A DNA stretch of 64,000 nt, from positions 2,871 through 66,870 of the forward strand of contig JAGYKM010000002.1 of assembly GCA_018401675.1 (NCBI GenBank), given 5' to 3'. This DNA is from Alphaproteobacteria bacterium (GTDB lineage Bacteria > Pseudomonadota > Alphaproteobacteria > 16-39-46). Position numbers and translations under genes: made by a program. Positions 2,740 to 40,000 of the stretch are shown one piece after another (positions within the stretch are counted from its first letter, which is position 1; every line of letters starts with the position of its first letter). Below the pieces are notes generated by a model that did not search any database, was not told the DNA's origin, and saw only the letters and a list, made by a program, of their open reading frames with translations.

Positions 2740-4011
2740 TTGGAAGGAGACAAATCAGTGCAAATTCAAGGACTTTTAGGCATTGTCTTTTTTTTAAGTC
2801 TCTGCTGGATTGTTAGCGAAAATCGCTCCCAGGTCAAATTCAAGAACATTCTTCTAGGTCTCAGCATGCAAATAGGCATTGCTCTGGTACTCACTGAAAT
2901 ACCCTATATACAGCACATTTTTTTTAAATTAGGCCACCTTATTGCTCTCATAAAAGAAGCCACTCTGGAAGGCACCATGTTTGTCTTCGGCTACATAGGT
3001 GGGGGTGATCTTCCTTATGTGGTGAAAGAAGGTGGCAACACCTTCAGCTTGGCTTTCCAAGCACTCCCCATGATTTTCGTCGTCAGCTCCTTGTCCATGC
3101 TCTTATTCTACTGGAAAATCCTACCCATGGTGGTCAAAATGTTCTCCTGGGGTCTTCAAAAAACCCTAGGTATTGGTGGCGCTTTAGGGGTTTGTGGTGC
3201 TGCCAAGGTGTTCTTAGGGCAAACAGAAGCCCCACTTCTAATTAGGCCTTACCTCACTCAATTAAGCCGTAGCGAACTTTTTACCGTCATGACTTTAGGC
3301 ATGGCCACAACTTCCGGGACTATTATGGCGCTGTATGCGGCTTTACTCGATGCCACCTTACCCCACGTTCTCTCTCATATATTGACAGCCTCCATTATAA
3401 GCGTTCCTGCGGCTATTACCCTTTCGCGTATCATGGTCCCTCAAGAGGGCCCAGTAACCTCCGGAGAGCTGGTTATGCCCTTTGAGTTCACCAGTTCTAT
3501 GGATGCTATTTCTAAAGGGGCCTCAGACGGCATTAAGATGTTTATTAATATCGTAGCCGTTTTAATCGTTTTCGTGGCTTTTGTGGCGCTTTTAAATAAA
3601 ATCATGGGCCTTATGCTGCCGCCGGTTTTCGGGGATCCTCTCACTTTGCAGCGTATTTTAGGAGCCCTCATAGCCCCATTAGCATGGCTCATGGGTATTC
3701 CTTGGGCAGAAGCTAAAATAGCTGGTAGTCTCTTAGGTACCAAAACCATTCTTAATGAGATTTATGCCTTTTCAGAGCTGGCGCAACTTCCCTTAACAGC
3801 GCTCAGTGCCCATACGCGCCTCATCATGATTTATGCTCTGTGTGGTTTTGCTAACTTTTCGAGTATTGGCATTCAAATTGGTGCTTTGGGGACTTTGGCC
3901 CCTGAGAGACGGCGGGACGTGATTTCCTTGGGCTTTAAAGCCGTCTTTGCAGGAACGCTTTCCACTATGTTATCAGGAACCATTATCGGCCTTCTGGACT
4001 ATTTGCATTGA
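2740..4011 (+). CDS. NupC/CNT-family concentrative nucleoside transporter
   Basis: 423-aa polytopic membrane ORF. The N-terminal ([16 protein letters not shown]) and C-terminal ([21 protein letters not shown]) signatures are typical of NupC. Confidence 0.8.
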
Positions 4012-6197
4012 CAGTACATCCTCTTTCTCCTCCACCTTTTTGTACGCTTGATTTATGTTCTGGTCTCAACGACCCTCAATCTGAAGCCGTTTTGCACTTA
4101 GAAAGTCCGTTGCTTATTTTGGCAGGAGCAGGTACGGGAAAAACCCGGGTACTCACCACACGTATTGCCCACATTCTTTCTACCTATCAAGCCTATCCTT
4201 CTGAGATCCTCGCCGTTACTTTCACAAATAAAGCCGCCTCAGAAATGCGCACCCGTGTGGCTTCTGCGTTAGCCGCGATGTGGAAGGACTATGGTTAGGC
4301 ACATTCCACTTTATGTGCAAGATCGTTAAGACGCCATGCTGAGCTGGTTAATCTTACCCCTAACTTTACTATCTTAAACACCGACGACCAAATTCGTCTT
4401 TTAAAAGGATTAATAAAAGCAGCCAATATTGACGATCGCGCCTATCCTGCCCGGGCCTATTCTCATCTTATTGGTCGGTATAAAGACCGTGGGTTAGGGC
4501 CTTCAGAAGACCCCTTGAGTCAAGGAACGCTCCCATCGTTTCAAAATATTTATTCCCAATATCAAGAGCGATTGCGCATACTTAATGCGGTAGATTTTGG
4601 GGATCTTATCCTTCATATGATCACTATTTTAAAAAATCACCCAGATGTGCTGGCTTACTATCATAAGAAATTTAAATTTATCCTTGTTGATGAGTATCAA
4701 GACACCAACGTGGCTCAGTATTTATGGTTACGCCTTCTTGCCCAAAATGGTCAGCCCATTTGTTGTGTGGGAGATGATGATCAGTCTATCTATGGGTGGA
4801 GAGGCGCCGAAATAAAAAATATATTGCGGTTTGAAAAAGATTTTCCCGGCGCCAAAACAATCCGCTTAGAACAAAATTACCGCTCTACGCCTCATATACT
4901 GGGAGCGGCTTCCTCTTTGATCTCACAAAATAGTGAACGCTTGGGTAAAACCTTGTGGACTGAAGTGCCAGAAGGAGAAAAAATTCGCGTCACTGGTGTT
5001 TGGAGTTCAGACGAAGAGGCTCGGTTTGTATGTGACGAAATAGAGAATCTTCATCGAAAAAAACATCTCTTATCCCAGATGGCTATTCTTGTTCGAGCGG
5101 GGTTTCAAACCCGGTCTTTCGAAGAAAGACTTATCAGTCTGGGTATTCCTTATCGCGTCATTGGGGGAGCGCGCTTCTATGAACGCCTGGAGATTCGAGA
5201 TGCGATTGCTTACTTAAGAATAGTGATGCAGCCTCGAGATGGGTTAGCCTTTGAGAGAATTTTGAACACCCCTCGCCGAGGCATAGGTCCCACCACTTTA
5301 CAGGTTCTCCATGATATAGCCCGCCAAAATGAGTGCTCCTTACCTGAAGCGGCTTTTGCTGCCTTGCAAGAAGGTCAGTTAAAAGGGGCTGCATGCAAGG
5401 GGTTAAAGGACTTGTTGTTCAACTTAGAACGGTGGCGTCAACAAACACCTCAAGAAAAACCAGCGGACATGGCCAAGCTCATTTTAGATGAATCTGGCTA
5501 TACGGGCATGTGGCGACAAGATAAATCTCCTGAGGCTCCAGGTCGCTTAGAGAACTTAAAAGAGTTTGTTGCAGCCATTCAGGAATTTCCTACCTTAGCA
5601 GGGTTTCTGGAACATATTTCCTTAGTGATGGAAAATACCCGAGACACTCAAGAAGACCAAGTTCTTCTCATGACACTCCATGGATCAAAAGGATTGGAGT
5701 TTGAAACAGTCTTCTTAGCAGGGTGGGAAGAGAACGTATTTCCCCATGGGCGTGTCCTCAGTGAAGAAGGTACGTTAGGGCTTGAAGAAGAGCGACGTCT
5801 TGCTTACGTAGGGATAACCCGTGCCCGCGCACGTTTGTTTATTACCTATGCGATTAATCGCCAAATTTATAACCAATGGGTCTCCTCTATACCTTCCCGA
5901 TTTTTATCCGAAATTGACCCCCAACACCTCCTATGGGAAAGTAAAGAAAGTACAAGTCACGGGTCCCAAAACACCTATGACTTAGGGCAGACCAGCTCTT
6001 TTTCCAAGGCAGAAAGAAAAGCCTCCTCTCCTGCTCCCGCATTACTTTCTGGCTTCAGCCGCAAAGGAGAGCGGGTGTTCCACGACAAATTTGGGTATGG
6101 CTCTATTCTCTCCACCGCAGGGAATAGTTCCGAGGTTTCTTTTGACAAAGCTGGCGTTAAGAAAATTATGACGTCTTTCCTTAAATCCACCCCATGA
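4008..6197 (+). pseudogene. uvrD: UvrD-family DNA helicase II, interrupted
   Basis: An N-terminal Walker A fragment ([14 protein letters not shown] 4008-4298) ends at an in-frame TAG at 4296-4298. The conserved GLWLGTFH motif is readable only in the -1 frame at 4286-4309. The original frame resumes as HSTLCARSLRRHAEL... and continues through the 560-aa ORF to the UvrD C-terminal RVFHDKFGYG tail. Two compensating 1-nt indels lie about 30 nt apart. Confidence 0.75.
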
Positions 6198-6206
6198 GAT
6201 ATACTT

Positions 6207-7145
6207 ATGACCTCATCTCCTTCCTATGAGACTATCACCCTTATTTTGCCCTCTCCTGATTGGGAAATCTGTGAAGCTCTTTTGCATGACCATTGCAGTG
6301 CAGTAAGCACCTTTATGGATCCTGACTCGTCTGGTTGCTGGACTCTGGTAGGCATCTTTGAAAAAAAACCTGATGCGGACTTTGCTTCTGCTTTTCTTCA
6401 AGAAGCCCACTCCAAAGGGGTCTATCTTGATCCAGAAGATCTTGTTATTACTCCTTTAGAAAATATCGATTGGCTCCGTCAAATTTCCTTGGATTTTCCA
6501 GCTTTTTCAGTAGAAAATTTTTGGATTCATGGGACCCATATTTCCGAAAATTGTCCTAAGGATCACCTTGAACTCATCATAAATGCTGCCACGGCCTTTG
6601 GTTCAGGGGAACATGAAACGACGAAAGGCTGTTTGATCCTCCTCAAGGCACTTCTGGATAGTAAAAAAATAACTATGAACGGCCCTCGGGTTTTAGATAT
6701 GGGATGCGGCTCAGGCATTTTGCTTATTGCTCTGGCAACATACCTGGTTCATCAAAACACCGAGAGTCCATCTTCTGACCACAAAGAGCCCTTTTTACTG
6801 GGTGTAGACAGTGATCCAGAAGCCATCTCTGTCTCGATAGAGAATGGCGTTTTTAATCAAGTTTCGTCTCTCGTCTCTTTTCAACAGAGTACCGGGTTTG
6901 AAACCATGGGATCTTGCACTGAAAACTTTGATCTGATATTTGCCAATATTGTTCTTTCTCCTTTGCAAGCCCTTCGGGATGATTTTAGAAAAGCTTTGAA
7001 ACCGGAAGGTTATCTCATTCTATCAGGTCTTTTGCAAACCCAAGTAGATGGCCTTCTCCAAGGTTATTTACCCTTAGGCTTTGAGCTCATTGAATCGACC
7101 TTCTTAGGAGAATGGGCGAGCTTACTTTTGCAAAAAACTCCCTAA
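6207..7145 (+). CDS. prmA: ribosomal protein L11 methyltransferase
   Basis: 312-aa ORF carrying the PrmA motifs FGSGEHETT and VLDMGCGSGILLIA (SAM-binding). Confidence 0.8.
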   Translation: MTSSPSYETITLILPSPDWEICEALLHDHCSAVSTFMDPDSSGCWTLVGIFEKKPDADFASAFLQEAHSKGVYLDPEDLVITPLENIDWLRQISLDFPAFSVENFWIHGTHISENCPKDHLELIINAATAFGSGEHETTKGCLILLKALLDSKKITMNGPRVLDMGCGSGILLIALATYLVHQNTESPSSDHKEPFLLGVDSDPEAISVSIENGVFNQVSSLVSFQQSTGFETMGSCTENFDLIFANIVLSPLQALRDDFRKALKPEGYLILSGLLQTQVDGLLQGYLPLGFELIESTFLGEWASLLLQKTP

Positions 7146-7191
7146 AGGATTGACTATAACTCTTAAGTGATTCTGTTTCTTATTAGTAAAT

Positions 7192-8301
7192 TCAAACAGA
7201 GTCCGTTTTTTCCTTCAAAGCTTTTCCATCCAGAAGATAGCAAGGTAAAGGCCCGGATATGGAGTGAATCGTATCGGGAAAATCTGTCTTAATACCGTCT
7301 AATGGAATAAAACGCGGATTCACACAAGGTTCACCGTTCTCATAGGATACATTGAATAGAGCCACCACATCTACATCAGGGATAAGAGTAGATTCTTCTG
7401 AATCGGTAAATACAGTAGTCATGGACATGAATGATTCAGCATCTGGATACATATCAACAATTGCCTCAAACTCACTTATTTTAACAGTTTCCTGACCTAT
7501 AAGTGACTCAGGAAGCTGGCTTATAAGACTGGGTCCAATAAGGGAAAACTGGCTATAGGTTTCGCTTTTGTCATAAAAAGATAACTCCTTCCAGCAAGGC
7601 ATTTCCCACCCTCGGGTGCCCACCGGCTCGAAATCACCACTAGAGCTCAAAAGATAAGGCTTTCCATTGAGTATCTTGGCTTCTGTAGTTTCAAAAACCT
7701 CCAGTACTGCCTTAATCGTTTTTTCTAGGCTCATTTTGTGAGAGCCATCCACCACAAAAATTTGATCAGTTGCAGGTATAAATATCCACGGAGATGAAGT
7801 CAGCTTAAGAACTGCCTCTAATTGGGCAAGATATATATGAGGACCTAAAACTTGGGAGCTCGATATTTTCCAAGCATGAGAACTAATTTTTTCTTGTTTT
7901 AAAGCCTGGACATCCAAGTTATTCTTCCCTGCCTCAAAGGCTTCTTGAAAAGAAACCCCCCAGCAATCCAAATCGTTTTGATTTACCCACCGCAAGCAAT
8001 CTCCCATATCTACCATTAGGGCATACCCTAATTCATCATTGAGTGCCACAAAACAGGGTGTCAAAGAGTTGATAAGCTCTTCAGACAGATCTTCTTCAAG
8101 AATACCATTCTCGTTTAAATCGGCGAGAGTCCCTGCTGTAATACCAACAAAATGAGACAAGGGGGCATACCTAATAAGCAATAAATCCTTTATATCACCA
8201 AAATTATTTGAATAACTCTCCCCATCATGCAAGCCATGGTCCTTAGACCTATTATCTATCATTCCTCTCCACACTCTGCCTATCCAAGATCCCATAACCA
8301 C
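7192..8301 (-). CDS. hypothetical protein
   Basis: 369-aa ORF with coding-like composition. No family was recognised by eye. Confidence 0.45.
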   Translation of the reverse strand: MVMGSWIGRVWRGMIDNRSKDHGLHDGESYSNNFGDIKDLLLIRYAPLSHFVGITAGTLADLNENGILEEDLSEELINSLTPCFVALNDELGYALMVDMGDCLRWVNQNDLDCWGVSFQEAFEAGKNNLDVQALKQEKISSHAWKISSSQVLGPHIYLAQLEAVLKLTSSPWIFIPATDQIFVVDGSHKMSLEKTIKAVLEVFETTEAKILNGKPYLLSSSGDFEPVGTRGWEMPCWKELSFYDKSETYSQFSLIGPSLISQLPESLIGQETVKISEFEAIVDMYPDAESFMSMTTVFTDSEESTLIPDVDVVALFNVSYENGEPCVNPRFIPLDGIKTDFPDTIHSISGPLPCYLLDGKALKEKTDSV

Positions 8302-9433
8302 CTCCTTTTAGCCTTGAAAATAATAATTCTACCCACATTACAACCCATTTGTCATCTTACTAGGCAAGAATTCAGGACTTTTAATAAACTAAGACCCCAA
8401 GTAGTCAGCCTTGACTTAGCTTTATAAACAACTAGCCCTCCAAAGAAAACCCCTCATGACTGGTCAAAATCAAGGTGCCATCTTGAGCGCCCTTTGAATA
8501 AATGAATGCCTATCCTCTCCATAAAGACTTGAAAGGAACAGCCCCTATGAGGTACATATCTTCAACATACTTTCGAGGCATAGTTGTCTCTAGTCCTTAG
8601 GCCAAGTTGACGTAGGTCATGGGATAGGGAAATATAATAAACAGCGACCTCATAGTGAAAAGTATTGTTATGGAAAAACACCCATGAAGGCCTTACGCGA
8701 AGCAAAATATTTAGAACTAGAAAAGAAAATTGCTTGCGCTGAATTATCGGACAGAACCACTCATGGTACAGAAGCTGCCTGGTAACTATATGTCAGATTA
8801 AGTATAGTATTCCCCATATGTAATACACTAAACTTAATCTGACTAATTTGATAAAAAAAGCAACAAAAGAAGGAGTGTGCGAGTTCGTATCCTATGACGA
8901 TCACCCCTATCGAACATGAGCTTTAAGGTTCTGTTTTCTTTTCGTCCGTAAAGCTGAGAGAGAGTTAAAAATAAGGCCACTTCCTTTTAAGAAGGTTAAG
9001 ATACGGCCCACCGTACTTTCGCTGATGATCATGATCTCGTCTCAAGATAATGGAAATTTCTCCTTACCCTAGGTAAGATTGGCTCTATGAATGCTTAGGA
9101 CCAGTTGTTTATGACCTTTGCCCCGTGGAGGTTTATTAAGCTTTTTAGGCCTTTTAGAAGGAGAGGAAATGCCCTTTAGAAGCCTCTGGAGGGGACCCTT
9201 GCGTCTGTAGTAGGTGGGTTCGAGAGATACCTGTCAGGTCCTGGCAGATATTGATACAAACACCTTCTTTCCTAAGTTTTTCCCATAGAAAAATCTTCTC
9301 TTGATAACGTTTTTTATACTATTTTGCCTTACATCTATCTGGACTCCTGGAAGGTATTGTTGGCTAGGCTCCAACGTGCTATTCCCTAGACGTCCTTGTT
9401 TTGTATTTTTAAGAGAGTTAAGAGGTATTCCCC

Positions 9434-9733
9434 ATGACTGATTCACCCCCATTTTCACCTTCACCTTCACCCTCAGCTTCCACTTCAGCTCAAGCGGGCG
9501 GCATTGCTGGTGATCGCTTAAGAAGCTTTATAGAGCGTATCGAACGCCTTGAAATGGAAAAAGCACAAACCCAAGATTTTATAAAAGAAGTTTTTGATGA
9601 AGCCAAAGCCACTGGGTTTGATATCAAAATTATGCGACAAATTATTCGGTTGCGTAAACTCGATGCCGATGCCATCGCAGAACAAGATCACCTTTTAGAT
9701 CTTTATAAACAAGCTTTGGGAATGATTGCCTAA
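9434..9733 (+). CDS. gapR: GapR/DUF2312-family nucleoid-associated protein
   Basis: 99-aa ORF. Its core (FIERIERLE.EK....D.KEV..EAK..GFD.K..RQIIRLRK.D..E..E...LLD.Y..ALGM) matches DUF2312/GapR. An extra S/P-rich N-terminal tail is present. Confidence 0.8.
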   Translation: MTDSPPFSPSPSPSASTSAQAGGIAGDRLRSFIERIERLEMEKAQTQDFIKEVFDEAKATGFDIKIMRQIIRLRKLDADAIAEQDHLLDLYKQALGMIA

Positions 9734-11534
9734 ATGGCCTTTGTTTGATCTTTCAGCCAACGATAGACCTCTTTTGTAACAAGAGGTTCTAGGGTTGTTT
9801 GAACTTCTTGGTGGTAGGTATTAATCCAACGAATTTCCTCTTGGGTAATCTTGCTCATATCTATAAGCGCACTTTGGTATGGGACCCGGGTAAGGGTTTT
9901 GAAGTGATAGAAGTTTTCCTTGGGTGAGAGCTCTACCATCATTAAATTTTCTAAACGGATACCAAAAGCACCCTCGGGGTAATAGCCGGGTTCATTGGAT
10001 ACCACCATCCCGGGAACCAAAGCTATTTGAGATCCTCTTTGGCTAATGCCTTGAGGGCCTTCGTGCACATTCATAAAATGTCCTACGCCGTGACCAGTGC
10101 CGTGATTGTAATTCCAGCCACGTGCCCAAAGAAACTGGCGCGCCAGCACATCGAGATGAGCGCCTGTAGTTCCTTTTGGAAAACGCACTGAGGCCAAAGC
10201 AATATGCCCTTTGAGTACCGCAGTATAGGCATCAATAATTTCCTTTGGGGGTATTTGAGATCCCACCCAGACCGTTCGTGTCACATCGGTTGTGCCGTCA
10301 AGATATTGTCCACCCGAATCAATCAAAACGAGTTCGTTTTCTCCCAGCTCTCGGTCCGTCTCAGGGCTTGGATGATAATGAATAATAGCCCCGTTGGGAC
10401 CGAAACCCACAATGGTTTGAAAACTAGGAGATACATACAAATCAAACCCACTCCTTGACTCATCCACCTTAGCCGCCAAACCAGATTCAGTCAAAGTACG
10501 GTGGTCTCGATCACCATCCAACAGCTCTTTTAAAACACTAACTAAAGCGGCCCCATCTTTCTTATGCGCTTGATCAACTTGATCACAAGCTCGAGGTCCT
10601 CGTACAGATTTTGGTCCCATACATAGATCTTCACCCCAAATTACGGCGCACGCTTCTTCTAGATAAGTCGCTACTGCTGAGGGTGTGGTTATAGGATCTG
10701 CCCAAAGAGATCCTGCAACCTCCTTCAAACGGAAATTCTGCTCATGAGAGGGTAAAAATCTGATCCTGGCACCAAAATAATCGTTGAGTTCTGCTGATAT
10801 TTTTTGGTCACTAAACACATCCACTGTCCCATCGGCATAGAGCACGCCACGTGCTAAAAAAAGTGGGGTGTAGGCAGTGTCAGTGCCCCGAAGGTTCAAA
10901 AGCCAGTTCAAGCTTTCTGGAGAGCTTAGGAAAAAACCCTCACATCCTTTTTGAGAGAGCGCCTGAGCTATAAAATCGCATTTCGAGCTAAAAGGCTGAT
11001 CCTCTTCTCCTTGGGTATACAGGTAAGGAGGGCTCTTAGAGTGGCCATCATGACAGGTTGTTTTAAACAAAACATCTATAGGATTAGGATCCATAGTCCG
11101 CCACTCTATGGCTTGTGCTGTATCTAATTTTTCAAATCTTCAAGACAATTTTTACTTATCAGAAGAGGATCAAATCCTAATATTAGTTTTTTTGAAGTTT
11201 TCTCAGGCTCATCTAAAAAGTCTTGTATGGATTTTTGAGTCCATAAAAAGACTTCCAGTGAGGGAGAGATCAAATTTTGAGCCTCCAGGATATATCTACC
11301 ATCTACAAAAAGGGCTGCTGCGTTTTCCAAGACAATCCCTAATCCAGCTGATCCTTTAAAATCAAATAAGACCTGGAGACGATTAGATTCTGGCGACGAG
11401 GGGGTGTTTTGGAATGAATCCGTATGAGGAATAATCATTCCTCCGTACCCGTGTTTTGTTAAATATTCTTGTAAGGCTTCTATAGGAGATCTCTCCGGTT
11501 TTTTTATAATTTTTTTTATAATAGAGTCGAGCAC
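9730..11534 (-). pseudogene. pepP: Xaa-Pro aminopeptidase (M24B, PepP-like), split by a frameshift
   Basis: The 136-aa ORF (11124-11534) is the creatinase/AMP_N N-terminal domain (HTDSFQ..GSAG..V......FVDGRYILEAQ). The 454-aa ORF (9730-11094) carries the M24 catalytic domain (HGTGHGVGHF.NVHEGP). The two parts are in different frames and about 30 nt apart. Confidence 0.75.
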
Positions 11535-11574
11535 GTCTCTAATCCTCCAACTAAGACCCCCTTAAGGAGATACA

Positions 11575-12159: not shown

Positions 12160-12417
12160 TTTGGGACAAAAAAAATTCCTTAACCATTCAAGCTCAAGTT
12201 GTATCGTCTTTTTGAGTCATAATTCAAGAAGATACGACAAGAAAAATCTCACCACCATTCAATTCCCACTGAAGTTAAAAGCCAATGTTTTTATCACCAA
12301 AAGAGTTTCTTCGGATTAAAATTTATTTTTGCACCTTCTTGTTTTTTATATTACTGTTGGGCCTCATCATGGAGTTCTTCCTTACTTTTTTGTTCTTTCC
12401 AATAAACGAGGCATCCT

Positions 12418-13260
12418 ATGCATACTTCCTCTCTTCGCTTATCCCTCTTACTCGCTACCTCCCTTGTGCTAGGAGGGTGCCTCACCGAGAACACCTATCA
12501 AAGTTTTCCTGTCACTCATTCTTCTCTCTATGAGGATGGCCCGTTTTACGATCCCAACTATGAAATTCAGCGGTCTCGCGATTTGCTCTACCAAGAGCAA
12601 CGCGCCTTCGAAAGAGCCACTCAATCATATAGAGAACAAGAACTCTTTTATCGCCACCATCGATCCATTGAGGCCCATCAAAATCTGATTCGCGCAAGCA
12701 ACGAACAGAATCGTATTCAAAGAGAGCTGCAAAGACGTCAACAAGATCTGGAGATTTTAGAAAGAAATCTTCATAATCAACAAAGAAACCTATTCGAAAG
12801 AAATGCGGGTGTTCAACAAGAGCAAGAACGCATTCAATCTGCTCAACAACGTCAACGAGTTCAAGAGGAAGCACGCATTCAACAGCAAATCCATAGCGAT
12901 GCCAGACTAGCCCAGCAACTCCAAGAGCAAGAACGCGTTCAATCTGCTCAACAACGTCAACGGGTTCAAGAGGAAGCACGCATTCAACAGCAAATCCAAA
13001 GCGATGCCAGACTAGCCCAGCAACTCCAAGAGCAAGAACGCATCCTAGCTGCTCAACATCGTCAACGGGCTCAAGAAGAAGCACGCATTCAACACCAAAT
13101 CCAAAGCGATACCAGACTAGCCCAACAGCTCCAAGAAGAAGAACACCGTCAAGCAACGCAACAGCGTCAACGGGCTCAAGAAGAAGCACGCATTCAACAC
13201 CAAATCCAAAGCGATCACCAGCTAGCCTTACAGCTTCAGGCTCAAGAAGACCAGGGTTAG
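12418..13260 (+). CDS. repetitive Q/R/E-rich lipoprotein
   Basis: It has a signal peptide with a lipobox (LVLGGC). The C-terminal half is built from 35-aa (105-nt) tandem repeats of the form QEQERIQSAQQRQRVQEEARIQQQIQSDARLAQQLQE. Confidence 0.65.
   Translation: MHTSSLRLSLLLATSLVLGGCLTENTYQSFPVTHSSLYEDGPFYDPNYEIQRSRDLLYQEQRAFERATQSYREQELFYRHHRSIEAHQNLIRASNEQNRIQRELQRRQQDLEILERNLHNQQRNLFERNAGVQQEQERIQSAQQRQRVQEEARIQQQIHSDARLAQQLQEQERVQSAQQRQRVQEEARIQQQIQSDARLAQQLQEQERILAAQHRQRAQEEARIQHQIQSDTRLAQQLQEEEHRQATQQRQRAQEEARIQHQIQSDHQLALQLQAQEDQG
12817..13236 (+). repeat. Four copies of a 105-nt in-frame tandem repeat inside the lipoprotein gene
   Basis: Near-identical units begin at 12817, 12922, 13027 and 13131. 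Confidence 0.8.
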
Positions 13261-13474
13261 GATACTAAGGGGCTTTAGAGAAAAGGTCTTTTTAAATACC
13301 TAAATCATCTGGGGTCCTGTTTTTGGTTTTTATAATGAGAAGCGCTAGTATAGGTATTTCTCGGTAGCGTTTGCCCTCTCCTAGTGGTAGCATACGGGGA
13401 GTTTCCATTCTGGCGCTAGAGCCTTTTTATCTTCGTCAGAGCACCCCTTTAAACTTTCGTGGACTGATAGTTGA

Positions 13475-14152: not shown

Positions 14153-14170
14153 TTTTGGGATGCCTCTATT

Positions 14171-15286: not shown

Positions 15287-15359
15287 GCACAAAGAGTCCA
15301 ACCCAACGTTTTTTACATGGAGTTACGAGATTAGGATACTGTCGGACGAAAGAGTCTTT

Positions 15360-15719: not shown

Positions 15720-15729
15720 TTATTTCCCC

Positions 15730-16803: not shown

Positions 16804-17035
16804 CTCTACCTCGCTTATTTGATTATAATTTTTGGAAATATCTCTCTGTTCTTAGAAAAACACTTTTTGAAGCTTACGACAATCCCCTATGTGGTTACGA
16901 ACACCCACCTTTAAGAGACCTCGCCTCCCTTAGTTCGTCCATGATCATAAATGAGGTCCTTGTAAAAAAAAGCCTCTTTTGAAAAAAAGCCACCTATGCA
17001 ATGGTAGGGACGAACTTTTTATAGGAGGTACCTTT

Positions 17036-18558
17036 ATGCAATTTCAATTCTCAAGCGCGGCTCCGAAGATCACTTCAGAGACTCTTGTTGTAGGTGTTTT
17101 TGAAGACTCAGGGCTATCTACTGAGGGAAAAAATCTCAACACATCCATGAAAGAAACTCTTTCTCAAGCCATCTCCAAAAGAGGGTTCAAAGGAAAATTG
17201 GGAAAAACTCTTTCCTTGCTTCATCCCCGCGAGGCAGATGCAGATCAGATCATCCTCATTGGTTTGGGTAAACGCGATGAGTGCTCTCCACATTTATTGA
17301 CAGAAGCCGGTGGATTTTTGTATTCTGCGCTCACCCAAGAAAAAATAGAGACGGCTACTTTTCTTGTGGGAAGTGAATCCTTCAAGACCATCTCTTCTGG
17401 AGAAATTGCGGCTCATGTGGCCCAAGGCCTCTTATTGAAATCTTTCTATTTTGGAAAACACCAAACCAAGAAGGAAACCCCACCTATAAAAGCGTTAGCT
17501 TCTGTGAATTTTTATGTATCTTCTGAAGAAGAAGCTAAAACAGCGCGAATGCTTTTTGATCGGTTAGTGAGCATCTCGGAAGGGGTGTTTTATACCCGTG
17601 CGGTAACTTCTGAGCCCCCTAATATGCATTTAACTCAGAGACCTTTGCTGAGGGATTTGAAAGCTTCTCTTCATTGGGTATCAAGGTTGAAGTTCTTGAT
17701 AAAGCCCAAATGGAAAAACTGGGCATGGGATCTCTTTTAGGAGTGGCCCAGGGAAGTATAATTGATCCCCGCCTGGTCATTATGGAGTGGAATGGTGCGC
17801 TAGATAAAAACACGCCCCCTTTAGCCTTTATCGGAAAAGGCGTCACCTTTGATTCTGGAGGTTTATCCTTAAAATCTGCAGATGGCATGATGTCCATGAA
17901 GTATGATATGGGAGGCGCAGGCATTGTAGCAGGTCTTTTAAAAAGCCTCGCTTTAAGAAAAGCACCCGTCCGCGTGGTAGGCGTAGTCGGTTTGGTAGAA
18001 AATATGCCTTCTGGGTCCGCCCAACGTCCTGGCGATGTAGTCACCTCTATGTCGGGTCAAACCATTGAAGTATTGAACACAGACGCAGAAGGCAGACTTG
18101 TTCTTGCTGATGCCCTTTGGTACACTCAAGACCGCTTTAAACCCAAATTCATGATTGATCTGGCCACGCTTACAGGCGCCATCGTCGTTGCTTTGGGTGA
18201 AGAGTTCGCTGGTCTTTTCTCAAATAGCGATCTGCTCTCTGAACAGCTCATGGAAGCCGGTGCCCAAGTAGATGAAAAGGTATGGCGCTTTCCATTCCAT
18301 AAGAACTTTGATGCCCAGATGAAATCAACTATTGCCGATATGCAAAATATTGGTGGTGGCCGCGAGGCAGGCAGTATCACTGCCGCTATGTTTCTTCAAC
18401 GGTTTGTCAATAATGTTCCCTGGGTGCATCTTGATGTGGCAGGCGTGGTATGGGCTAATAAACAACGAGCTTTGTCTCAAAAAGGCGCTACAGGATATGG
18501 TGTCCGCCTTTTGAACCAATTTATTTCTGATTTTTACGAAGACCCCAAACACTCTTAG
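17036..18558 (+). pseudogene. pepA: leucyl (cytosol) aminopeptidase PepA, carrying a 1-nt frameshift
   Basis: The N-terminal domain is in ORF 16979-17740, with a likely start at 17036 after a GGAGG RBS. The M17 catalytic domain (NTDAEGRL, GGGREAG...) is in ORF 17674-18558. The frames join only if a C is restored at about 17635: observed actcagagacc, expected actccagagacc, giving LTPETFAE. Confidence 0.8.
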
Positions 18559-18578
18559 GATAAGGAAAAGGAGAGCCT

Positions 18579-19633: not shown

Positions 19634-19657
19634 AATGATTTGGGCTTGAATAAGAAT

Positions 19658-19901: not shown

Positions 19902-22900
19902 CTAGTCGCTCGGCACTCCCTCCTCAATTTCTATGGGTTCCACTGAATATATATAAGTCATGAAGGATATTATAAATTCTGGCATTTTATCTCTCCCATA
20001 CGAAATAAATCGTTCGATTACACTTTTCTCAACTTTCCACTGTGTTATTTTTCTTTGATTATTACACTCCTCCAGCAAAGTCTCCCTTACCATTTCTTTC
20101 ACTTGTTCTAGCCGTGGAGGCACCAGATCCTTTAAGACTTCATTTCTAGAAGTGACTTGGTACGGAGAAATAATGGACAACTGGGGGACCACACTACTGA
20201 TTTGCTTGGAGGATAGAAGGAGTACCGAATCAAACCCAAACTTTTGAATAATTGGCCGAAGTGCTTCAGGTGCATAGTCCTCAGGTAATTCCAAATTAGA
20301 CTCTAAAAATAAGGCAAAAGCATAGGTAGAAAGCTTACTAAGATCCCTCTTAAATTCATCAAACGCATTGTGGACGTAGGGGTTAAGAAATCTATTCAGC
20401 CACTGTGACGTTGCTCTCCTTACTGTGGTCTTTTCTGAAAAAGTAAATACGAAACCACTGCTTTTTTCCAGAGTAGGGAACAGCAATTTCCTGAGATACT
20501 CCATTTCTCCCTCAGATGTATAAATTTCAGGGAGGTTTAGGGCCAATAGAGTATTTCCATCAAAGTCCGGGTGGGTCAGAATCTGTACACGATCTGTGTC
20601 TTCCAAATCTCTAAACCATTCCCCGGCAAACTTAGGTTGTGTATAGTCTTTCAGTAGGTTATCCCCTAGGTAGGTTAAGCGATATAAGTGGCACTGCAGT
20701 CTTTTCTTTTGATCTGGCAAGAATCTACTTTGTGGAATGTATTTTTTATAAGCATGTATCCCTTCTTGTTCACAGAGACTAACAAGAGCGGATCCCACGG
20801 TGGCATCTTTTCTATTTAGATATTCATCGAGTATTTCAAAAGGATAGGAAAATAGAAGCTCAGGCGAAAGGGGATATCCATCCTTTATTATTTCTAAAAG
20901 ATCTTGAAAACATTCTCTTTCTTTCTCATAAATCTGGAACAGGATCCTTTCAAAACTCTTCCAAGAAGGCTCTTCAAGTAAAGATAATTTCTTGAATACT
21001 TGGTAAACCTCAAATGGTAAGCATTGTGTTGTATTACCTGGGACACCACCTTCCTGACACATCATAAAATAGAACATGCTTTTGCCATCTTTTAAATGAG
21101 TCAGTACCGTTTCTTTTCCATTGTGCTTCATAAGCTCAGCTAATATTAAGGTGACACATTCTCCTGTAAGTTCTGTTACCCCATCGGCTTTGCGCAAATG
21201 AAAGATTTTCAAAATCATGCTATGGTATTGAGAATAGAGTGTCTTTTTATCTATGCCGCCTGCAGCCAAGCCATTCACGATGGCGTTCCATATGGGAACA
21301 GAAAGAAAATACACGAACCTAGATTCTAAGAAGGCGCTGACTTTTTCTTTTGTTGTAGCTAACTCGTTCCATAATGAAACAGGAAGAGCTGCCAAATTAG
21401 TTTTGTTCCTAATTCTGTCTATCTCTCTTCTTGAGTCTTTATCTGTCTGACGCTCTAGCAATTCACCAACAGTAAGGTTATGAAGAGTCATAGACACCTT
21501 TTCTTTTGCTGCTACTGGGGCAAGACCGAATAAATCTTCGGCCTCTGACTCACGGGGCACAACCAGGCTCAGTTGGCAATCAAGTCCCCCTTTCCATCCA
21601 ATTTCTTTCAGACCACTTAATCCATAACGGTTCAACAACCCTCGTAAGGCAAAGGGCGTTTTCGTAAAGTCAGTATTTTTCCATACTCCAAATTTCTCTA
21701 TGGATGTCATTACTGATCGGTTAGACATTTTATGGCTCAACGCAGTCATCATCATGTAATCAGCAACATTAAACTCCCTTTGCTCCCCCGATACTATATC
21801 TTTAGCTGAGAAGGGCCTTAAGCGTTCCGGCCCTTGCAAAAATACTTGCATAGCCTCACAGTCACCTTGAAAAACCGCCGACTTAAATTGACTGGTAGAT
21901 ACTGGGGGCGGAGCTACCTTTAAATTAAGTTGATTATTAAAAATTAACCCCAGCAACCCCTGTTGGGTACGAAACTCATGAAATTGTCGGATTCCAATCT
22001 CTGTCCCCTTCAATACCTCACCCGCTAAAGCAACGGTCTTCTGTTCAACCAACGCCTCTCTGGAATTGTCATGGGGTGTTGAAGGGTAGAAATGTGTTTT
22101 TACGCATGCAGGATTAGAACTTGTTAATAAGCGCACTTCATAATCCAGCAAGCTGAAAGGACGACAGCCATCAGGCGCCAGTTCTTGATATTTTCTTATA
22201 GCTCCTTCCATAACACTACTATGGCCTGCACGAATGTGAGCCATAAATCGTATGACAGGGGGCAGTTCTTTCATCCAACCAGTTTCGCCGTCCTCTAGGG
22301 AGTCGTAAAGGCTAGCAATCGTTCCATCAGGTAAGTGGCGATCCTCAAATGAAAGTGGATGATTAAAAAACCATCCCGAAAGAGCAATACTCTCATGGGC
22401 GTCCTGTGGATCAACAAATATTTGCCTCAAAACACCCAAACGGCGCTTTTCAGATGAGGAAGACGGCAAGTCTAATCCCCTCGCTTCCGGTGTACCTTGT
22501 GCTTTGGGATCACTTTTCTTAAGCTTTGGATCCTCCACATGATAGGAGGTATTGAACACCCCATGTAACTCTTCTGCTAGACTACTTGCTGTCTCAAGCT
22601 TAAGGCCCAATGATGTAAATACATCTACCAAGACGTGCTTCAAGTCGAGTGGTACCTCCGAATGACTGCGTAGCCAATAGGTTAACGTGCGACATCCATC
22701 ATGCTCGGGATTTCCTGTAAGGGCCGCATTTCCAGATACCATTACCTCAAAAGGACTCAGATACTCATTTTCTTGACTGCTCGATTGACACGTATCGGTA
22801 AAAGCTTCTTCTATATTTCCATACCGTTGAGTGACTTTGTCAAACAATCTCCAGTAAACCGGCCGTTCCGGAAAGCCCAAGATCTTTGCTAAGGCACCAT

Positions 22901-33221: not shown

Positions 33222-33373
33222 AATACGTAACTTCAGGAGAAACAAGGAATCAATAGTCATCATCATGAGCCATAAATTGAGATACATGTCTTCTCAGGCA
33301 TCGACATTTTCTTGCCCCTGTCCTACTATCTGAATCAGTCTTATTGAAATTATTATGTTAAGGAAAATTTTTT

Positions 33374-34622
33374 ATGAAAAGAATTAATAACTCGAAAAAG
33401 ACTCACCCTTTTTTTACCTTTTTAATCTTGGCTTTGATGCTTACTGTTCTCCATGCGCCTTCCTGGGCGGTAGTGAGCGATTTGTCTGACGCCTCAAATA
33501 AGCCCACTTCTGTAAGGCACCGGGCAGCATGGAAAAAGCGCTGGAAAGACTTCGAGCCCTTCACGCTGAAAGAGATCACTATTTTGCGTTGTATCCAGCG
33601 CTCTTTATAAAACAAGGTCCTATCCCTTTCGGTAATGATATTACCGTCGCCATTTCTCATATTACAGATGAGGACACTCGAGCATCCGTGGCAGCGCTGG
33701 CTCCTCGCCTTTTTTCAGCCGTCCCAGATGACCGATTTAATGGATCTGACCGATCGAGGATAATTAAGGCTCTTGGGGCGATTTAGGATGAAAAGACCCG
33801 AAGGTCTACTGCAGATTTGGCTCAACAGATCACGATCATCGCTGGTACTATGCATAAAGATGTCGTGATCGAGATCCTTGGAAAGACCCCCGACGAGGCA
33901 ACACGACAATCGGTTGTGACCCTGTCTATAGGCCTTTATACTGCCGATATGAGGACTTCGACCGCCGGCAGATTTTTTCCATATTCTCCCAGATGCCCGA
34001 CGAGGCAACACGACGCTCTGTTTCGGATTTAGCGCCTGCTCTTTTATCCAAATCTGAGGCTCGGTGTCCCTATGAGAAGATTCATATTGTTGAAGCTCTG
34101 AGCGCCATTGAAGATGAGCTAACCCGACGCACTATTGGGGAGCTCACCCTTGAACTCCTGAAGCTCCCTGATCGGGAACGGAGTATACCTGAAATAATGA
34201 GCAGGCTTTTGGCTATTCGCGATGGATCTGTGCGTAAACTGGGTGTGGAATTGCTCCCTGAGCTTTTTACACGCTCTTTGACCGCGGATCTGCATCCAGA
34301 TACCTTGCCTATTATTATCAATTTTCTCTGCCAGGTTCCTGATGAAGCCGAAAGGCATTCTATGATCGGCCCCTTTGCGAACCTATTCAATAACCTTCAC
34401 GAAAGTCGGTTTGTTATGATCATGCAATCTGTTGAAAATTTCAAAGATATATCCACAAAACTGTCGTTTCTCCGCCACGTTTCTTCTCTTAAAGGAAAGT
34501 ATATGAGCGAGCACGACACCTCTACACTTATATCTATCCTTCAGAAATTTCCAGATAGAGACAGTCGAGAATCTTTCGTAAACCAGGTCCTTTGGGACAA
34601 GGCAGGAGCTCTAACCTCATAA
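33374..34622 (+). pseudogene. fragmented gene for a secreted protein with ~36-aa HEAT/PBS-lyase-like repeats
   Basis: Four ORFs in three frames. They comprise a signal-peptide ORF (33374-33610), a frame +1 segment with an in-frame TAG at 33784-33786, and a shift to frame 0 near 33950-33990. The motif (I/L)..xPDEATR.SV..LAP.L recurs, including an exact 19-nt repeat cccgacgaggcaacacgac at 33888 and 33997. Confidence 0.6.
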
Positions 34623-35074
34623 CAGTGACTGATATTCAGCAACTTTTTCGAGAGATGAACGTCGCCCCATGAAGCCGTGCTAGTCTAATCTAGAGAGAAA
34701 TCTGGAGCTGACAAGACCCAGGTTATTCCCTGGCAAGTATACTTGCCTTTTGAGGCTTGCTAAACCAGAAATATCAAGTGAGAAGAGGGTTTCTTTGACG
34801 AGTTATAGATGGGTTATTAACTTCCAAGTCAACTTACTGGCTGCTCTCGTAACGTCCGTCTTCAAATCCAATAAAGTCCCCATTACCTTCAAAAAACTGC
34901 CTCTTGCCAGCGCAATGTCATCCAAGAGGGAGTTAATCCTCCTGGTTAAGGATAAGTCACCTGAAGTCCTGGAGGGTTGATCAGCTCCCTTTCTTTTAAA
35001 ACCGCAAGAATGTCCTTTATCTTCAAAGACAGACATGCCAGAATCCTTAAAATTAATTAACCTTCAAAGAAGGG

Positions 35075-37240
35075 GTGACCTGCCTTATGCCTGGCACTTT
35101 AAACACGCAAGAAAATATAAATATTTCCTTAAAAACGCCTTTGGGGGAAAATACCCTCATTTTAGAATCCTTGGAGGGTGAGGAGCATATATCACGCCCC
35201 TTCTCTTTCAGGCTCTCCATGTACGCCCACTCTCCCTCTCTTGACTTAAGTCGTTTGTTGGGAAAAGAAGCCACCGTCACCTTTAAGATTAAAGGGGACG
35301 TTCGATACCTCCATGGGATCATTGGCCAAGTTGCTCAAGGGCCAACGGTAGGACACCCTACTGCTCGAGAATCAGAGCGCACGTTGAAAGGGGCACAAGT
35401 AACTTACTATACAGCCTTTTTATACCCCTCTTTCTGGATAGAACACTTTAACCAAGATTGTCGTATATATCAAAACCAAGATACGCTGAAGATTGTTACA
35501 GAGCTCTTGAAAAAAAATAAAAAAATGCGCATTAAGGATCTTAGCCACCGCTTGGGACGCCAAGTCTTTGAGTACTGTGTGCGCTATAACGAGAGTACTT
35601 TTAATTTCGTCAGCCGGTTATTAGAAACCGCAGGGATTTACTATTTTTTCGAGCAAAAACATGACGAGCATACCCTTATTCTCAGTGATGGGGAATCGGG
35701 ATCAACTTACATTAGTGGACGTGAAATAGTTCCTTATATTCGCGAAAAATTTACCCGTCATATTCCCAATGCGGCCTTTGAGTGCTATTGGACCGAGTCC
35801 ACGGTTCCCGATGCTTTTTCTGCAGGGGACTTTAACTATGAAATACCCCACACCCGCTTGTTCTCAGAATCGAAAGGCCACGGCATTGGGGGAGAAGTGT
35901 ATGAGTATCCGGGAGGGTTCCAGAAGCAATCTATAGCTGAAAAAACCACCCCTTTACGCATTGAAGAAAGAGAATCTTTGCAAAAGATGCTAAGAGGGCA
36001 ATCTACGGTTTCCTCTTTTGCCCCTGGGTATAAATTCAAACTCAGAGGCCATGAACGCAAGGATATTAATACCACTTACATTATCCATTCCGTCCATCAC
36101 GAAGCCAGTTACGAAGAGGAAGAAGGCGGATTTTTATACAAAAATTCTTTTACGGCTTTTCCGGAAAAAACACGGTTCCGCCCGGATCTTAGAACGCCCC
36201 ATCCTAAGATCTATGGCTCTCAAACAGCTATAGTCACTGGAAAGAAAGATGAGGAAATATGGACCGATTCTTACAGTCGGATTAAGGTTAAGTTCCATTG
36301 GGATCGTTATGGTAAGGACGATGAAACCAGTTCCTGTTGGATCCGAGTGTCTACCGCGTGGGCTGGAGCTCACTGGGGGACCTTGTACACGCCTCGCATA
36401 GGCCAAGAAGTGGTGGTTAGTTTTTTAAATGGAGATCCAAATAAACCCTTGGTCACAGGCTCGGTATATAACGGTGTCCATAAACCGCCTTATCGTGCTG
36501 AAGACCCTACTATTGCTACGATGAAATCCAGCACCTCTAAAGGAGGCAAAGGATTTAATGAAATCCGTTTCCAAGACAAAAAGGACCATGAAGAGCTGTA
36601 TGTTCATGCTCAAAAAGATATGGCCATAGACATTATTAACAACAGAACCACCAAGATAGAAAAAGGTAATTGCACCACCACCATTGAAGCGGGAGATCGA
36701 ACGGTAACTTTGACTGGAAAAAAGAAGAAAGATGAAGATCCTGGAGGTCCTAAAAAGAGAGGAAATGATTTCTTAACTTTGGATACGGGAAGTCGCACTG
36801 TCAAACTCTTGGGTAAAGGTTCCGAAGAAGGATCCCATACGATGGATATTGCCAAGGGCAATCACACCTTATCCATTAAAAAGGGAAACGAGATCCGAAC
36901 CCTTACTGAAGGTAATCAGACCATCAAATTGGCCAAAGGCAATCAAACGGTTACTGTGAATGGCTCCCGGACTGAGTCTATTACCAAAGACTATACCTTG
37001 ACTGTTAAAGGCAATCTAATCATTGACGTAACGGGGAATATTACCTTAAAAGCCGGCCAGAATCTATTGGTCAAGGCGGGCCAAAACATCACCATGGACG
37101 CTGGTATGAGCTTTATAGGTAAAGCCGCAACCAATGTTACTTTCTCTGGCGCTGTCATGGCTCTCAAAGCCACAGGGACTGGAATTTATGAAGCCTCGGG
37201 TGTTCTCACTCTTAAAGGTTCTCTTGTAACCATTGTCTAA
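35075..37240 (+). CDS. vgrG: type VI secretion spike protein VgrG
   Basis: 721-aa ORF carrying the gp27-like N-domain, the hallmark gp5 OB-fold motif RIGQEVVVSFLNGDPNKPLVTGSVYNG, and a C-terminal beta-helical repeat region. The likely start is Met at 35087. There is no C-terminal effector extension. Confidence 0.9.
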   Translation: MTCLMPGTLNTQENINISLKTPLGENTLILESLEGEEHISRPFSFRLSMYAHSPSLDLSRLLGKEATVTFKIKGDVRYLHGIIGQVAQGPTVGHPTARESERTLKGAQVTYYTAFLYPSFWIEHFNQDCRIYQNQDTLKIVTELLKKNKKMRIKDLSHRLGRQVFEYCVRYNESTFNFVSRLLETAGIYYFFEQKHDEHTLILSDGESGSTYISGREIVPYIREKFTRHIPNAAFECYWTESTVPDAFSAGDFNYEIPHTRLFSESKGHGIGGEVYEYPGGFQKQSIAEKTTPLRIEERESLQKMLRGQSTVSSFAPGYKFKLRGHERKDINTTYIIHSVHHEASYEEEEGGFLYKNSFTAFPEKTRFRPDLRTPHPKIYGSQTAIVTGKKDEEIWTDSYSRIKVKFHWDRYGKDDETSSCWIRVSTAWAGAHWGTLYTPRIGQEVVVSFLNGDPNKPLVTGSVYNGVHKPPYRAEDPTIATMKSSTSKGGKGFNEIRFQDKKDHEELYVHAQKDMAIDIINNRTTKIEKGNCTTTIEAGDRTVTLTGKKKKDEDPGGPKKRGNDFLTLDTGSRTVKLLGKGSEEGSHTMDIAKGNHTLSIKKGNEIRTLTEGNQTIKLAKGNQTVTVNGSRTESITKDYTLTVKGNLIIDVTGNITLKAGQNLLVKAGQNITMDAGMSFIGKAATNVTFSGAVMALKATGTGIYEASGVLTLKGSLVTIV

Positions 37241-37272
37241 AACTGGAACGTGCTGTTTGGAGGGCCTTAATT

Positions 37273-40000
37273 ATGACTGATGACACCTTCCCCTTTATCC
37301 TAGTGGATGGATCGGGGTATATTTTTAGAGCTTACTTTGCTCTTCCATCCCTAACGCGACATGATGGAGGCAGCGTAGGTGCGGTTTTTGGTTTTACCAG
37401 CATGCTTCTTAAGCTTCTTGATTCACAAGGGCGCGATGGGTTGGTGGTTATATTTGATGCAGGCCGGAAAACCTTCCGGAATACCATTTATCCAGCTTAT
37501 AAGGAGAATCGCCCCCCACCCCCGGAGGATCTCATTCCTCAATTTCCCTTAACCCGTGTGGCGTGTGAGGCCTTGGGCGTTGAGTGGATTGAAAGTGATG
37601 GATTCGAAGCTGATGATTTAATCGCTTCTTATACTAAAAAAGCCCTCGCGTCGGGCAGAAAAGTGCGCATCATCTCCAGTGACAAGGATTTGATGCAGTT
37701 AATTCAGCCTGGGGTTACCTTTTTTGATCCCATGAAACAAAAAGTCGTCGATGAAGTAGGTGTATTGGAAAAATTTGGTGTGGCTCCGAATCAAGTCTGC
37801 GATGTTTTGTCTTTGATGGGAGACGCAAGTGATAATATACCCGGAGTGCCCGGCATTGGACCGAAAGGAGCCGGTCAGCTCATTCAGCGTTTTGGAAATT
37901 TAGACACTCTGTTAAGTCACATAGACCAAGTGGAGAAACCCTCCCACCGTAAAACTCTAGAAGAACATAAAGATAAAGCGTTGCTGTCTTACCAATTGGT
38001 GTGTCTGGATGCGGATGTTCCCTTGCCTATGCCCTTAAAGGATCTCAAAACCAAGCCTTTAGATATGAATTTATGTTTGTCCTTTTTTAAAGAACAAGGA
38101 TTTTCCTCTCTTATTCCTCGATTAGAAAGATATAGAGCAAAACTGGGGCAAGAAAGCATAACGGCCTCACCTGAAGGTGAGAAATATGCCCCTCAACTGG
38201 AGTGGACTTATGAACCTCTGGCCAACAAAAGTGAACTCGTTGCGGTTGTGGAAAAAGCTTCTAACGCCTCTTATCTCTCTTTGGTACTTGAGGACACCCA
38301 AGATGGGCAAAAAATTGCCTTTTGCTTCGAGGATAAAAATGCCTATAGCGTCCTCTTAACCAGTTCAGGAACGGGGGACCTTTTTACCCCCACTGCAGGA
38401 CAGCTAACTTTTAAAGAAGCTTTGAGCGTTTTAGCGCCCCTGCTCAAAGACAAGAGTCTTATGAAAGTCAGCCAAGACATCAAACAGATCCTTCTGGTTC
38501 TCGCCCCTTATGGCTTTTCCTTAGAACCTTTTCAGGATGTACTTCTTATGGGATACGATGTGTCAGGATGTAAAACTGGACAAACCTTGAGTAGTTTGGT
38601 TGATGACTACTTAGAGCTATCCTACGAGGATAAAAAGACCCTAGGCCTCATAGAGCCCGAATCTACGCCTTCCATGAGCCCAGATAAACGCGATGCCGCT
38701 CAGGCTTATTTGGGTCTTAAGCTGGTTTCTGTTCTTCAAAGTCGCCTCATTAAAGAAAAAGTGTCGAGTATATATGAGTGTATTGATAAGCCCGTTATCC
38801 CGGTTCTTGGAACTATGGAGCGGAAGGGCATACTTGTAAGCGCTGAGCGGCTCAAGCTCTTAGGCAATGAGTTTGGAGAAAAAATGAATTCCTTGGAAAC
38901 CCAAATTTATGCCCAAGCCGGGCATAGTTTTTCTATTGGGTCTCCCAAACAATTAGCGGAAGTTCTCTACAAGGAAATGGGCTTTGAAACGGGGTCTAAA
39001 GGCAAGTCTGGTGACTATAGTACCAAAGCAGATATACTTGAGGCACTGGCCGCCCAAGGGCATATTTTTCCCCAGCTGGTTTTACAGTGGCGCGCTTTGG
39101 CCAAATTAAAAAATACCTATGCCGATGGTCTTCTTGAGTACATCGATCCTACTGATTCTCGTATTCATACCTCAATGTCGTTGACGGCCACGGCCACTGG
39201 AAGGCTTGCTTCTTTTAACCCCAATCTTCAAAATATTCCCATACGTACCGAGGAAGGTATAAAAATTCGCAGTGCCTTTTGCGTTCCGGAAAATCATGTG
39301 CTCCTGTCTCTCGACTATTCTCAAATCGAGTTACGTCTTTTGGCACATATGGCTAATATTCCCTCCCTCATTGACGCTTTTTGGAAGAATCAAGATATTC
39401 ACGCCATTACCGCTGCCCACGTATTTGAGTGCCCACTGGACAAAGTAGATAAGGCCCTAAGACGAAAAGCTAAAATCATCAATTTTGGCATTATATATGG
39501 CATAAGTCCCTTTGGCCTTTCCCAACAACTAGGTATTTCAAGAACCGAGGCAAAAGAACACATAGATAGCTACTTTAAAACCTATCCGGGCATTCAAGAT
39601 TACATGGAAGCTAAAAAGGAGGAGGCGCGCCAAAAAGGATACGTAGAAACCTTATGGGGACGCCGATGCCGTATTACGGATATTCATAGCTCTAACGGAA
39701 TCAAAAGAAGCTTTGCAGAAAGACAAGCCATTAACGCGCCTTTACAAGGCAATCGCTGCGGATATTATTAAAAAAGCAATGATTCAAAGCTATGAATGGG
39801 AAAAGGAGAAACAAACAGCCCCGAGTTTGTTACTTCAAGTTCATGATGAGCTCTTATTCGAGGTTTCTGAAAAAGAGTTTTTAGTTTATGCAAATTCTTT
39901 AAAATCCATCATGGAAGGGGTTATTAAGCTCTCCGTTCCTTTGGTGGTTGACGTTTTCAAAGGAAATAATTGGGGCGCTTTGAGACCAGTAGCCTCTTGA
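37273..40000 (+). pseudogene. polA: DNA polymerase I, frameshifted near the C-terminus
   Basis: The 832-aa ORF holds the 5'-3' exonuclease domain, a degenerate 3'-5' exonuclease domain, and polymerase motifs A and B. The frame breaks at about 39750, inside the conserved INAPLQG|AADIIK region. Motif C (QVHDELLFEV) and the C-terminus are encoded in the overlapping 95-aa ORF 39713-40000. Confidence 0.8.

Follow-up and report, generated by a model that had tools for sequence, protein, structure and literature searches.

Small indels that split conserved genes in a 64-kb alphaproteobacterial window are probably residual consensus errors

Results

We examined a 64,000-nucleotide stretch of an alphaproteobacterial genome (Alphaproteobacteria bacterium, lineage 16-39-46; assembly GCA_018401675.1, contig JAGYKM010000002.1, positions 2,871 to 66,870 of the forward strand), hereafter the window, in which four housekeeping genes, uvrD, pepP, pepA and polA, and one orphan helical-repeat gene are interrupted by small lesions. 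The window carries ~52 protein genes and 5 tRNAs at 43-44% G+C, with a coding density of 87%. An earlier note on this DNA had described these five genes as broken and their long neighbours as intact, and both halves of that description hold: the breaks are present in the deposited sequence where they had been placed, leuS, priA, radA, vgrG, tssC and tssF are complete by profile matches, and a 1384-aa open reading frame (ORF) runs through uninterrupted. In family searches with every sizeable ORF, nearly all recognizable genes matched at full profile length, and ~47 genes besides the five broken loci are full length. All five loci fall between 4 and 40 kb of the window. The broken housekeeping genes make up 4 of ~45 recognizable conserved genes (~9%), and since a clean assembly of a normal genome should have ~0-1% of its conserved genes broken by our own estimate, this is more than chance would give.

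Each housekeeping gene is split into two ORFs (Table 1). In uvrD, the two ORFs share one frame, and three-frame translation places the conserved EGLWLGTFH between them in another. Alignment of the DNA with an intact 725-aa orthologue from the closest relative (Logan contig L001) located a deletion of 1 nt near 4270/4271 and a deletion of 2 nt near 4308/4309, 37 nt apart. The 12 out-of-frame codons between the two deletions hold the TAG at 4296-4298, so this stop results from the frameshift and is not a nonsense substitution. The uvrD pieces match positions 2-75 and 167-721 of the 725-position NCBIfam profile, and they were also aligned to UvrD in the PDB.

The remaining housekeeping lesions are single-base events. 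The pepP lesion is a deletion of 1 nt in an A5 run on the coding strand (11128-11132), confined to 11127-11145 by stops in both frames; Pfam assigns Creatinase_N to the N-terminal piece and Creatinase_N_2, Peptidase_M24 and M24_C to the C-terminal one. Once repaired, PepP has 601 aa, of which residues 33-581 align with the eukaryotic aminopeptidase P APP-1 (4s2r). In pepA, 1 nt is missing at 17636/17637, and mending it to ACT C[C]A GAG restores LTPETF. The pepA pieces match NCBIfam profile positions 14-199 and 212-501 of 502, and residues 1-498 of the repaired protein (507 aa) can be aligned with a solved M17 peptidase (8pz0). The polA lesion is an insertion of 1 nt within AATC at 39749-39752, inside the QG[T/S]AADI motif and between polymerase motifs B and C, where the counterpart in the relative (Logan contig L082; intact, 911 aa) reads GG-GACG. 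The polA pieces match profile positions 3-811 and 813-887 of 889, and the 5'-3' exonuclease domain, which lies upstream of the lesion, is spared.

Undoing one indel, or the pair in uvrD, yields a full-length conserved protein in each of the four genes, and alignments of the repaired proteins to solved homologues and NCBIfam equivalog profiles extend from end to end. Reversal of 1-2-nt indels thus suffices to mend uvrD, pepP, pepA and polA, as expected of an artefact. Gaps that are not multiples of three in the uvrD C-terminal linker and the polA linker, considered as hidden compensated frameshifts, were rejected as alignment noise in variable regions.

Table 1. Interrupted genes, contigs of the second assembly and further features, in window positions
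Feature	Position	Strand	Description
uvrD (DNA helicase II)	4008-6197	+	two ORFs: N-terminal, 96 aa (4008-4298); C-terminal, 560 aa (4515-6197)
pepP (three-domain M24B aminopeptidase P)	9730-11534	-	two ORFs: 136 aa (11124-11534); 454 aa (9730-11094)
pepA (M17 leucyl aminopeptidase)	16979-18558	+	two ORFs: 253 aa (16979-17740); 294 aa (17674-18558)
polA (DNA polymerase I)	37273-40000	+	two ORFs: 832 aa (37273-39771); 95 aa (39713-40000)
orphan "HEAT-like" repeat gene	33374 or 33529 to 34622	+	~36-aa units with motif PDExTRxSV
Logan contig L088	9164-11114		100% identical; stops 14 nt before the pepP run
Logan contig L085	14903-16421		100% identical
Logan contig L086	17680-21232		100% identical; begins 44 nt after the pepA lesion
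Logan contig L087	32670-33874		100% identical; contains TAG 33784-33786; stops 10 nt before the zone of the repeat-gene -1 shift
polA middle domain	38250-38800		3'-5' exonuclease motifs lost
phd/yefM-yoeB pair	56933-57447		intact, ORFs overlap; looks superficially like a frameshifted gene
largest non-coding stretch	8302-9433		1132 nt
280-aa protein	12418-13260	+	Q/R-rich tandem repeat
1384-aa ORF	19902-24056	-	intact
368-aa protein	59995-61101	-	weak PF08303 match
type VI secretion block and vgrG	within 35075-37240 and 42325-49125

The orphan repeat gene differs from the other four in that it alone has more than one independent lesion. An in-frame TAG occupies the P/E position of the repeat motif. 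Further downstream, a 32-nt repeat recurs at 33884 and 33991, a spacing of 107 nt (108-1), so that the PDEATR motif is encoded in two frames, which points to a -1 shift between the two copies. A second shift is possible between 33503 and 33610; otherwise the gene starts at ATG 33529. Homologues were found in neither of two protein libraries (5.8 and 1.8 billion proteins), and the lone weak match (P0246) was set aside as an unrelated perfect tandem repeat. The structure model is all helical, at low confidence (mean predicted local distance difference test score, pLDDT, 61). It sits immediately upstream of vgrG, and it may be the decayed remnant of an effector or adaptor gene.

With these positions in hand, the idea that every lesion is a single-base indel or a TAG stands for pepP, pepA and polA and needs amending for the other two genes: uvrD carries a -1/-2 pair with a secondary TAG, and the repeat gene, whose TAG is real, has at least one -1 shift as well.

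We compared the lesions with the homopolymers of the window, which contains 184 runs of at least 6 nt and 55 runs of at least 7 nt, many within intact genes. Apart from pepP, where the lesion sits in the A5 run, the contexts are runs of 1-2 nt or a CT dinucleotide. Not one of the 184 runs, the 55 longer ones included, is hit. A homopolymer bias that rises with run length, the mark of a crude error profile and a check that the earlier note had proposed for the lesions, is hence not seen within the window, and because no long run is hit, the profile of an unpolished homopolymer-prone assembly is ruled out. This result leaves real mutation and leftovers of polishing unseparated. Deletions outnumber insertions by roughly 5 to 1 among the indels, which fall in runs of 1-6 nt, and the insertion follows "...CA". 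This spectrum resembles the gene-fragmenting errors reported for nanopore assemblies (PMC12007338).

The same sequence contexts bear on whether the breaks are bypassed in expression, through programmed frameshifting, transcriptional slippage or the reading of TAG as a sense codon. Slippage at poly(A) tracts rescues frameshifted genes in some endosymbionts, and the pepP lesion does lie in an A run. That run is just 5 nt long, however, the other sites have no run, and neither a slippery heptamer nor a poly(A/T) tract of ~9 nt or more was present at the shift sites. The lesions would also demand different shifts (+1, +2 and -1). Recoding of TAG as sense was rejected: TAG ends 12 of the 43 ORFs of at least 150 aa, and the one in uvrD falls within the shifted stretch. 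Bypass in any of these forms is scarcely credible.

An independent view of the lesions came from a second public assembly, the Logan contigs of run SRR14300309, four of which (L085-L088) were compared with the window. They are identical to it at 100%, with no gap and no single-nucleotide polymorphism (SNP), over 8228 nt. Run SRR14300309 is therefore of the same strain, and wherever it assembles, the deposited letters are accurate. The repeat-gene TAG, which sits inside contig L087, is thereby confirmed in a second assembly of the strain and is a real substitution.

The indels behave differently. All three of the indel sites that Logan contigs approach lie just past a contig end, and none is spanned. 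Under random placement of contigs around their anchor genes, the chance of such a near miss is 0.008 for pepP and L088, 0.014 for pepA and L086, and 0.011 for the repeat gene and L087; L086 and L087 would otherwise have been 50% and 90% likely to cover their indel sites. These thresholds were set after the data had been seen, and with 100-nt windows the joint chance is still ~2e-4 by our own arithmetic. Long proteins of the window each occur once, from the deposited NCBI contig only. The ORFs that define the lesions (the 96-aa N-terminal ORF of uvrD, the 95-aa C-terminal ORF of polA, the 136-aa N-terminal ORF of pepP and a 234-aa N-terminal ORF of pepA) appear in the NCBI record and are absent from Logan, and L20, L35, Ndk, HolC, GapR and an 85-aa repeat-gene ORF are present in Logan too. 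Contigs spanning the uvrD and polA lesions were sought through neighbouring genes, including a 71-aa and a 291-aa ORF, and those neighbours are not complete in Logan.

Contig ends that cluster by indel sites, together with the absence of the lesion-defining ORFs from Logan, could also arise if the indels were real but unfixed. A symbiont population with both intact and frameshifted alleles would split the k-mer support and break the Logan contigs, a situation that we judge quite improbable, as we do its corollary that the deposited consensus happened to pick the broken allele. A simple variant should end a shared contig at the variant and not 14-44 nt away from it, the two assemblies have zero SNPs between them over 8.2 kb, and several housekeeping frameshifts at intermediate frequency within 64 kb would be an unusual state for a population.

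We then considered selection and the age of the lesions. The closest relative is a sister species represented in run SRR14932693 (Logan contigs L001 and L082), whose uvrD and polA are intact, with amino acid identities of 82% and 71%; L001 is syntenic with the window. Synonymous sites between the window and this relative are saturated (pS 0.73-0.83), and the ratio of nonsynonymous to synonymous rates (dN/dS) was for that reason dropped in favour of relative-rate tests. The nonsynonymous divergence of uvrD from the relative is 0.14, inside the 0.11-0.35 spanned by its intact neighbours. Tajima tests used two outgroups for uvrD (L083 and L084, both with rmuC-nupC-uvrD-prmA synteny) and five for polA. 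Changes on the window branch versus the relative numbered 27 vs 23 and 21 vs 25 in uvrD, 47-54 vs 52-57 in polA, and 48 vs 58 and 48 vs 56 in the controls, depending on the outgroup. All tests were non-significant, and neither uvrD nor polA, the two genes that could be tested, shows acceleration; nor do the 84 polA codons downstream of the lesion evolve faster.

Secondary decay is likewise lacking. Past their lesions, the four housekeeping genes offer 4440 nt of downstream sequence, in which we found no further stop or frameshift; each gene carries its founding lesion only. With ~4.5% of substitutions expected to create a stop, and an assumed indel-to-substitution ratio of 0.05-0.2, neutral divergence since the housekeeping lesions has a 95% upper bound of 0.4-0.9%. 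Loss of 4 of ~45 conserved genes within so little divergence cannot be a steady state; the choice is between a burst in the very recent past and lesions of non-biological origin. No family search of the window proteins matched a transposase, and the largest gaps, among them the 1.1-kb gap at 8302-9433, gave no family match and no Rfam match beyond tRNAs. Given these results and the normal coding density, the context of reductive decay is missing from the 64 kb of the window. Two hallmarks of pseudogenes are thus not seen, relaxed constraint in uvrD and polA and secondary lesions in all four housekeeping genes, and their absence is what an artefact would leave.

The lineage itself is probably host-associated. 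By PolA similarity it is nearest to Paracaedibacter and Paracaedimonas, which are of the amoeba-symbiont type (47-49% identity). PepA, searched against GTDB representatives, had a best match of 67-69% identity among the matches listed, and a PolA query found no relatives in JGI metagenomes. The 3'-5' exonuclease motifs of Pol I (DxE, NxxYD, YxxxD) are lost both from the window and from the relative on L082, with PF01612 missing from both, and are kept in all more distant homologues. As far as can be read from these sequences, loss of Pol I proofreading is old, shared and genuine in the clade.

This background fits the biological account: real, fixed and very recent pseudogenes that arose in a burst in a host-restricted alphaproteobacterium, with the repeat gene as a slightly older casualty. 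The lesions are, after all, present in a deposited sequence that otherwise agrees with Logan at every base over 8.2 kb, a second assembly confirms the repeat-gene TAG, long homopolymers are free of lesions, the nearest named genera and the eroded proofreading motifs suit such a history, and polA keeps its 5'-3' exonuclease domain. In model bacteria, none of the four broken housekeeping genes is essential. We nevertheless consider fixed pseudogenes unlikely. Selection on uvrD and polA has not relaxed, 4.4 kb of downstream sequence holds no second lesion, and the coding density is normal with no transposase from the family searches. Fixed mutations also give no cause for contigs to break off within 10-44 nt of all three indel sites that they approach (joint chance ~1e-4 to 1e-6), and selection is no explanation for a uvrD pair that restores the frame and leaves a TAG in between. 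A more elaborate history, in which a protist-symbiont-like alphaproteobacterium with proofreading already gone very recently lost UvrD and the polymerase domain of Pol I, so that real fixed indels mark the onset of mutator-driven frameshift pseudogenisation before any secondary decay, strikes us as rather improbable. Ongoing reductive evolution, one of the two causes raised in the earlier note, accordingly finds no support for the four housekeeping genes. Genuine decay is supported for the orphan repeat gene only, which is probably an ordinary case, a true pseudogene or else two short ORFs.

Discussion

Our results point to an origin outside the organism. The indels in uvrD, pepP, pepA and polA, together with the -1 shift of the repeat gene, are probably residual consensus errors and not mutations. 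The deposited contig, 215.8 kb long, may be a consensus of indel-prone reads that was afterwards corrected with accurate reads at only modest depth. Such correction would work wherever accurate reads gave solid support, and errors would survive in short gaps of that support. Errors left only in support gaps would explain both the two uvrD lesions 37 nt apart and the perfect agreement elsewhere. The uvrD pair is natural for one uncorrected spot; two independent deletions so close together in a 2.2-kb gene would have a chance of ~1-3% by our own estimate. Since none of the 55 long homopolymers is hit, an artefact must take this form, polished except in gaps. Systematic indel error, the other cause in the earlier note, thus fares well at the contig ends, which fall 14, 44 and 10 nt short of the indels, and does not fit in the long-read-only form named there as an example, taken together with strong homopolymer bias.

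Several observations weigh against residual errors. No intact allele was observed, as none of the Logan contigs compared spans an indel site, and those contigs bear on the pepP, pepA and repeat-gene sites only. Contigs end 10-44 nt from the lesions and not at them, a pattern of local lack of support and not of a clean graph bubble. Ordinary genes (pduO, moaB, nupC, prmA, tssB and the DUF3576 gene) are also not complete in Logan, and the contrast between NCBI and Logan in the presence of lesion ORFs is weak (roughly p = 0.03-0.1). The lesion-free long runs are not what raw long reads would give, and the dispensability of the four genes and the probable host association of the lineage both fit real loss. 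The case for errors is, moreover, built on assembled contigs.

The lesions share much with errors described in long-read and partly polished assemblies (Kastor, PMC12007338): indels of 1-2 nt, mostly deletions, in runs of 1-6 nt, which split otherwise perfect conserved genes into adjacent ORFs whose full length is restored by correction. The rate in the window, about one site per 8-13 kb, is also similar. Unlike raw long-read errors, the indels avoid all 55 runs of at least 7 nt, and the rest is base-perfect against the second assembly; if they are errors, they would be leftovers after polishing and not a raw error profile.

Two symbiont systems offer biological parallels. In Sodalis glossinidius, about 50% of genes are pseudogenes (PMC7067036), and the window resembles such fresh pseudogenes in its single frameshifts and stops in conserved genes, repair genes included, and in a lineage that is probably host-associated. 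It differs in being 87% coding, with no transposase match and no spectrum of lesion ages, in the unrelaxed constraint on uvrD and polA, and in the coincidence of indel sites with contig breaks in a second assembly. Endosymbiont genes of Blochmannia contain frameshift indels that are compensated or 3'-terminal (Williams and Wernegreen 2013, PMC3622351), and here too the uvrD pair restores the frame and the polA indel lies near the 3' end. Unlike in Blochmannia, the shifted uvrD segment has a stop and destroys the WLGTFH helicase motif, and polA loses its motif C region (QVHDEL) to the frameshift. Neither amounts to a tolerated compensation.

As biology, the five-gene pattern is most likely not a real feature. 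The distinction matters in practice, and we advise caution: an annotation of this contig would report the loss of uvrD, polA, pepA and pepP and invite a story of reductive evolution with broken DNA repair. If the lesions are errors, roughly one gene in ten of the assembly may be falsely split, which would lower completeness estimates and distort metabolic reconstruction. If they are real, gene loss would have come in an exceptionally recent burst, with two repair genes among those lost; processes of this kind are already known from the evolution of symbiont genomes.

Other features of the window

Two loci that might be taken for additional broken genes were rejected. PriA matches profile positions 8-647 of 648, and phd/yoeB is a normal overlapping toxin-antitoxin pair. 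The full-length genes comprise map, rmuC, nupC, prmA, gapR, a PduO-type adenosyltransferase gene, a Tim44-like gene, mltA, moaB, holC, ndk, xerC, fsa, leuS, holA, vgrG, tssB, tssC, two hcp genes, tssE, tssF, tssG, radA, mlaEF, tolC, phd/yoeB, priA and msbA.

The largest non-coding stretch has no ORF longer than 47 aa, no Rfam or family match and no terminator-like site. The 1384-aa ORF has no match in Pfam or NCBIfam and no relative in JGI metagenomes; judged by its sequence, it appears to encode a large lineage-specific protein. Logan contig L086 confirms its C-terminal 442 codons. The 280-aa protein combines a signal- or lipoprotein-like N-terminus with a Q/R-rich tandem repeat (QQRQRVQEEARIQQQI...) and matches no family. 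For the 368-aa protein, the only match is a weak one to a tRNA-ligase-kinase or P-loop kinase family (PF08303, E = 8e-6), a type of match that is unusual for a bacterial chromosome.

The type VI secretion block consists of tssB, tssC, two divergent hcp paralogues, tssE, tssF and tssG. Between vgrG and this block lie polA, two unannotated ORFs and two tRNA genes.

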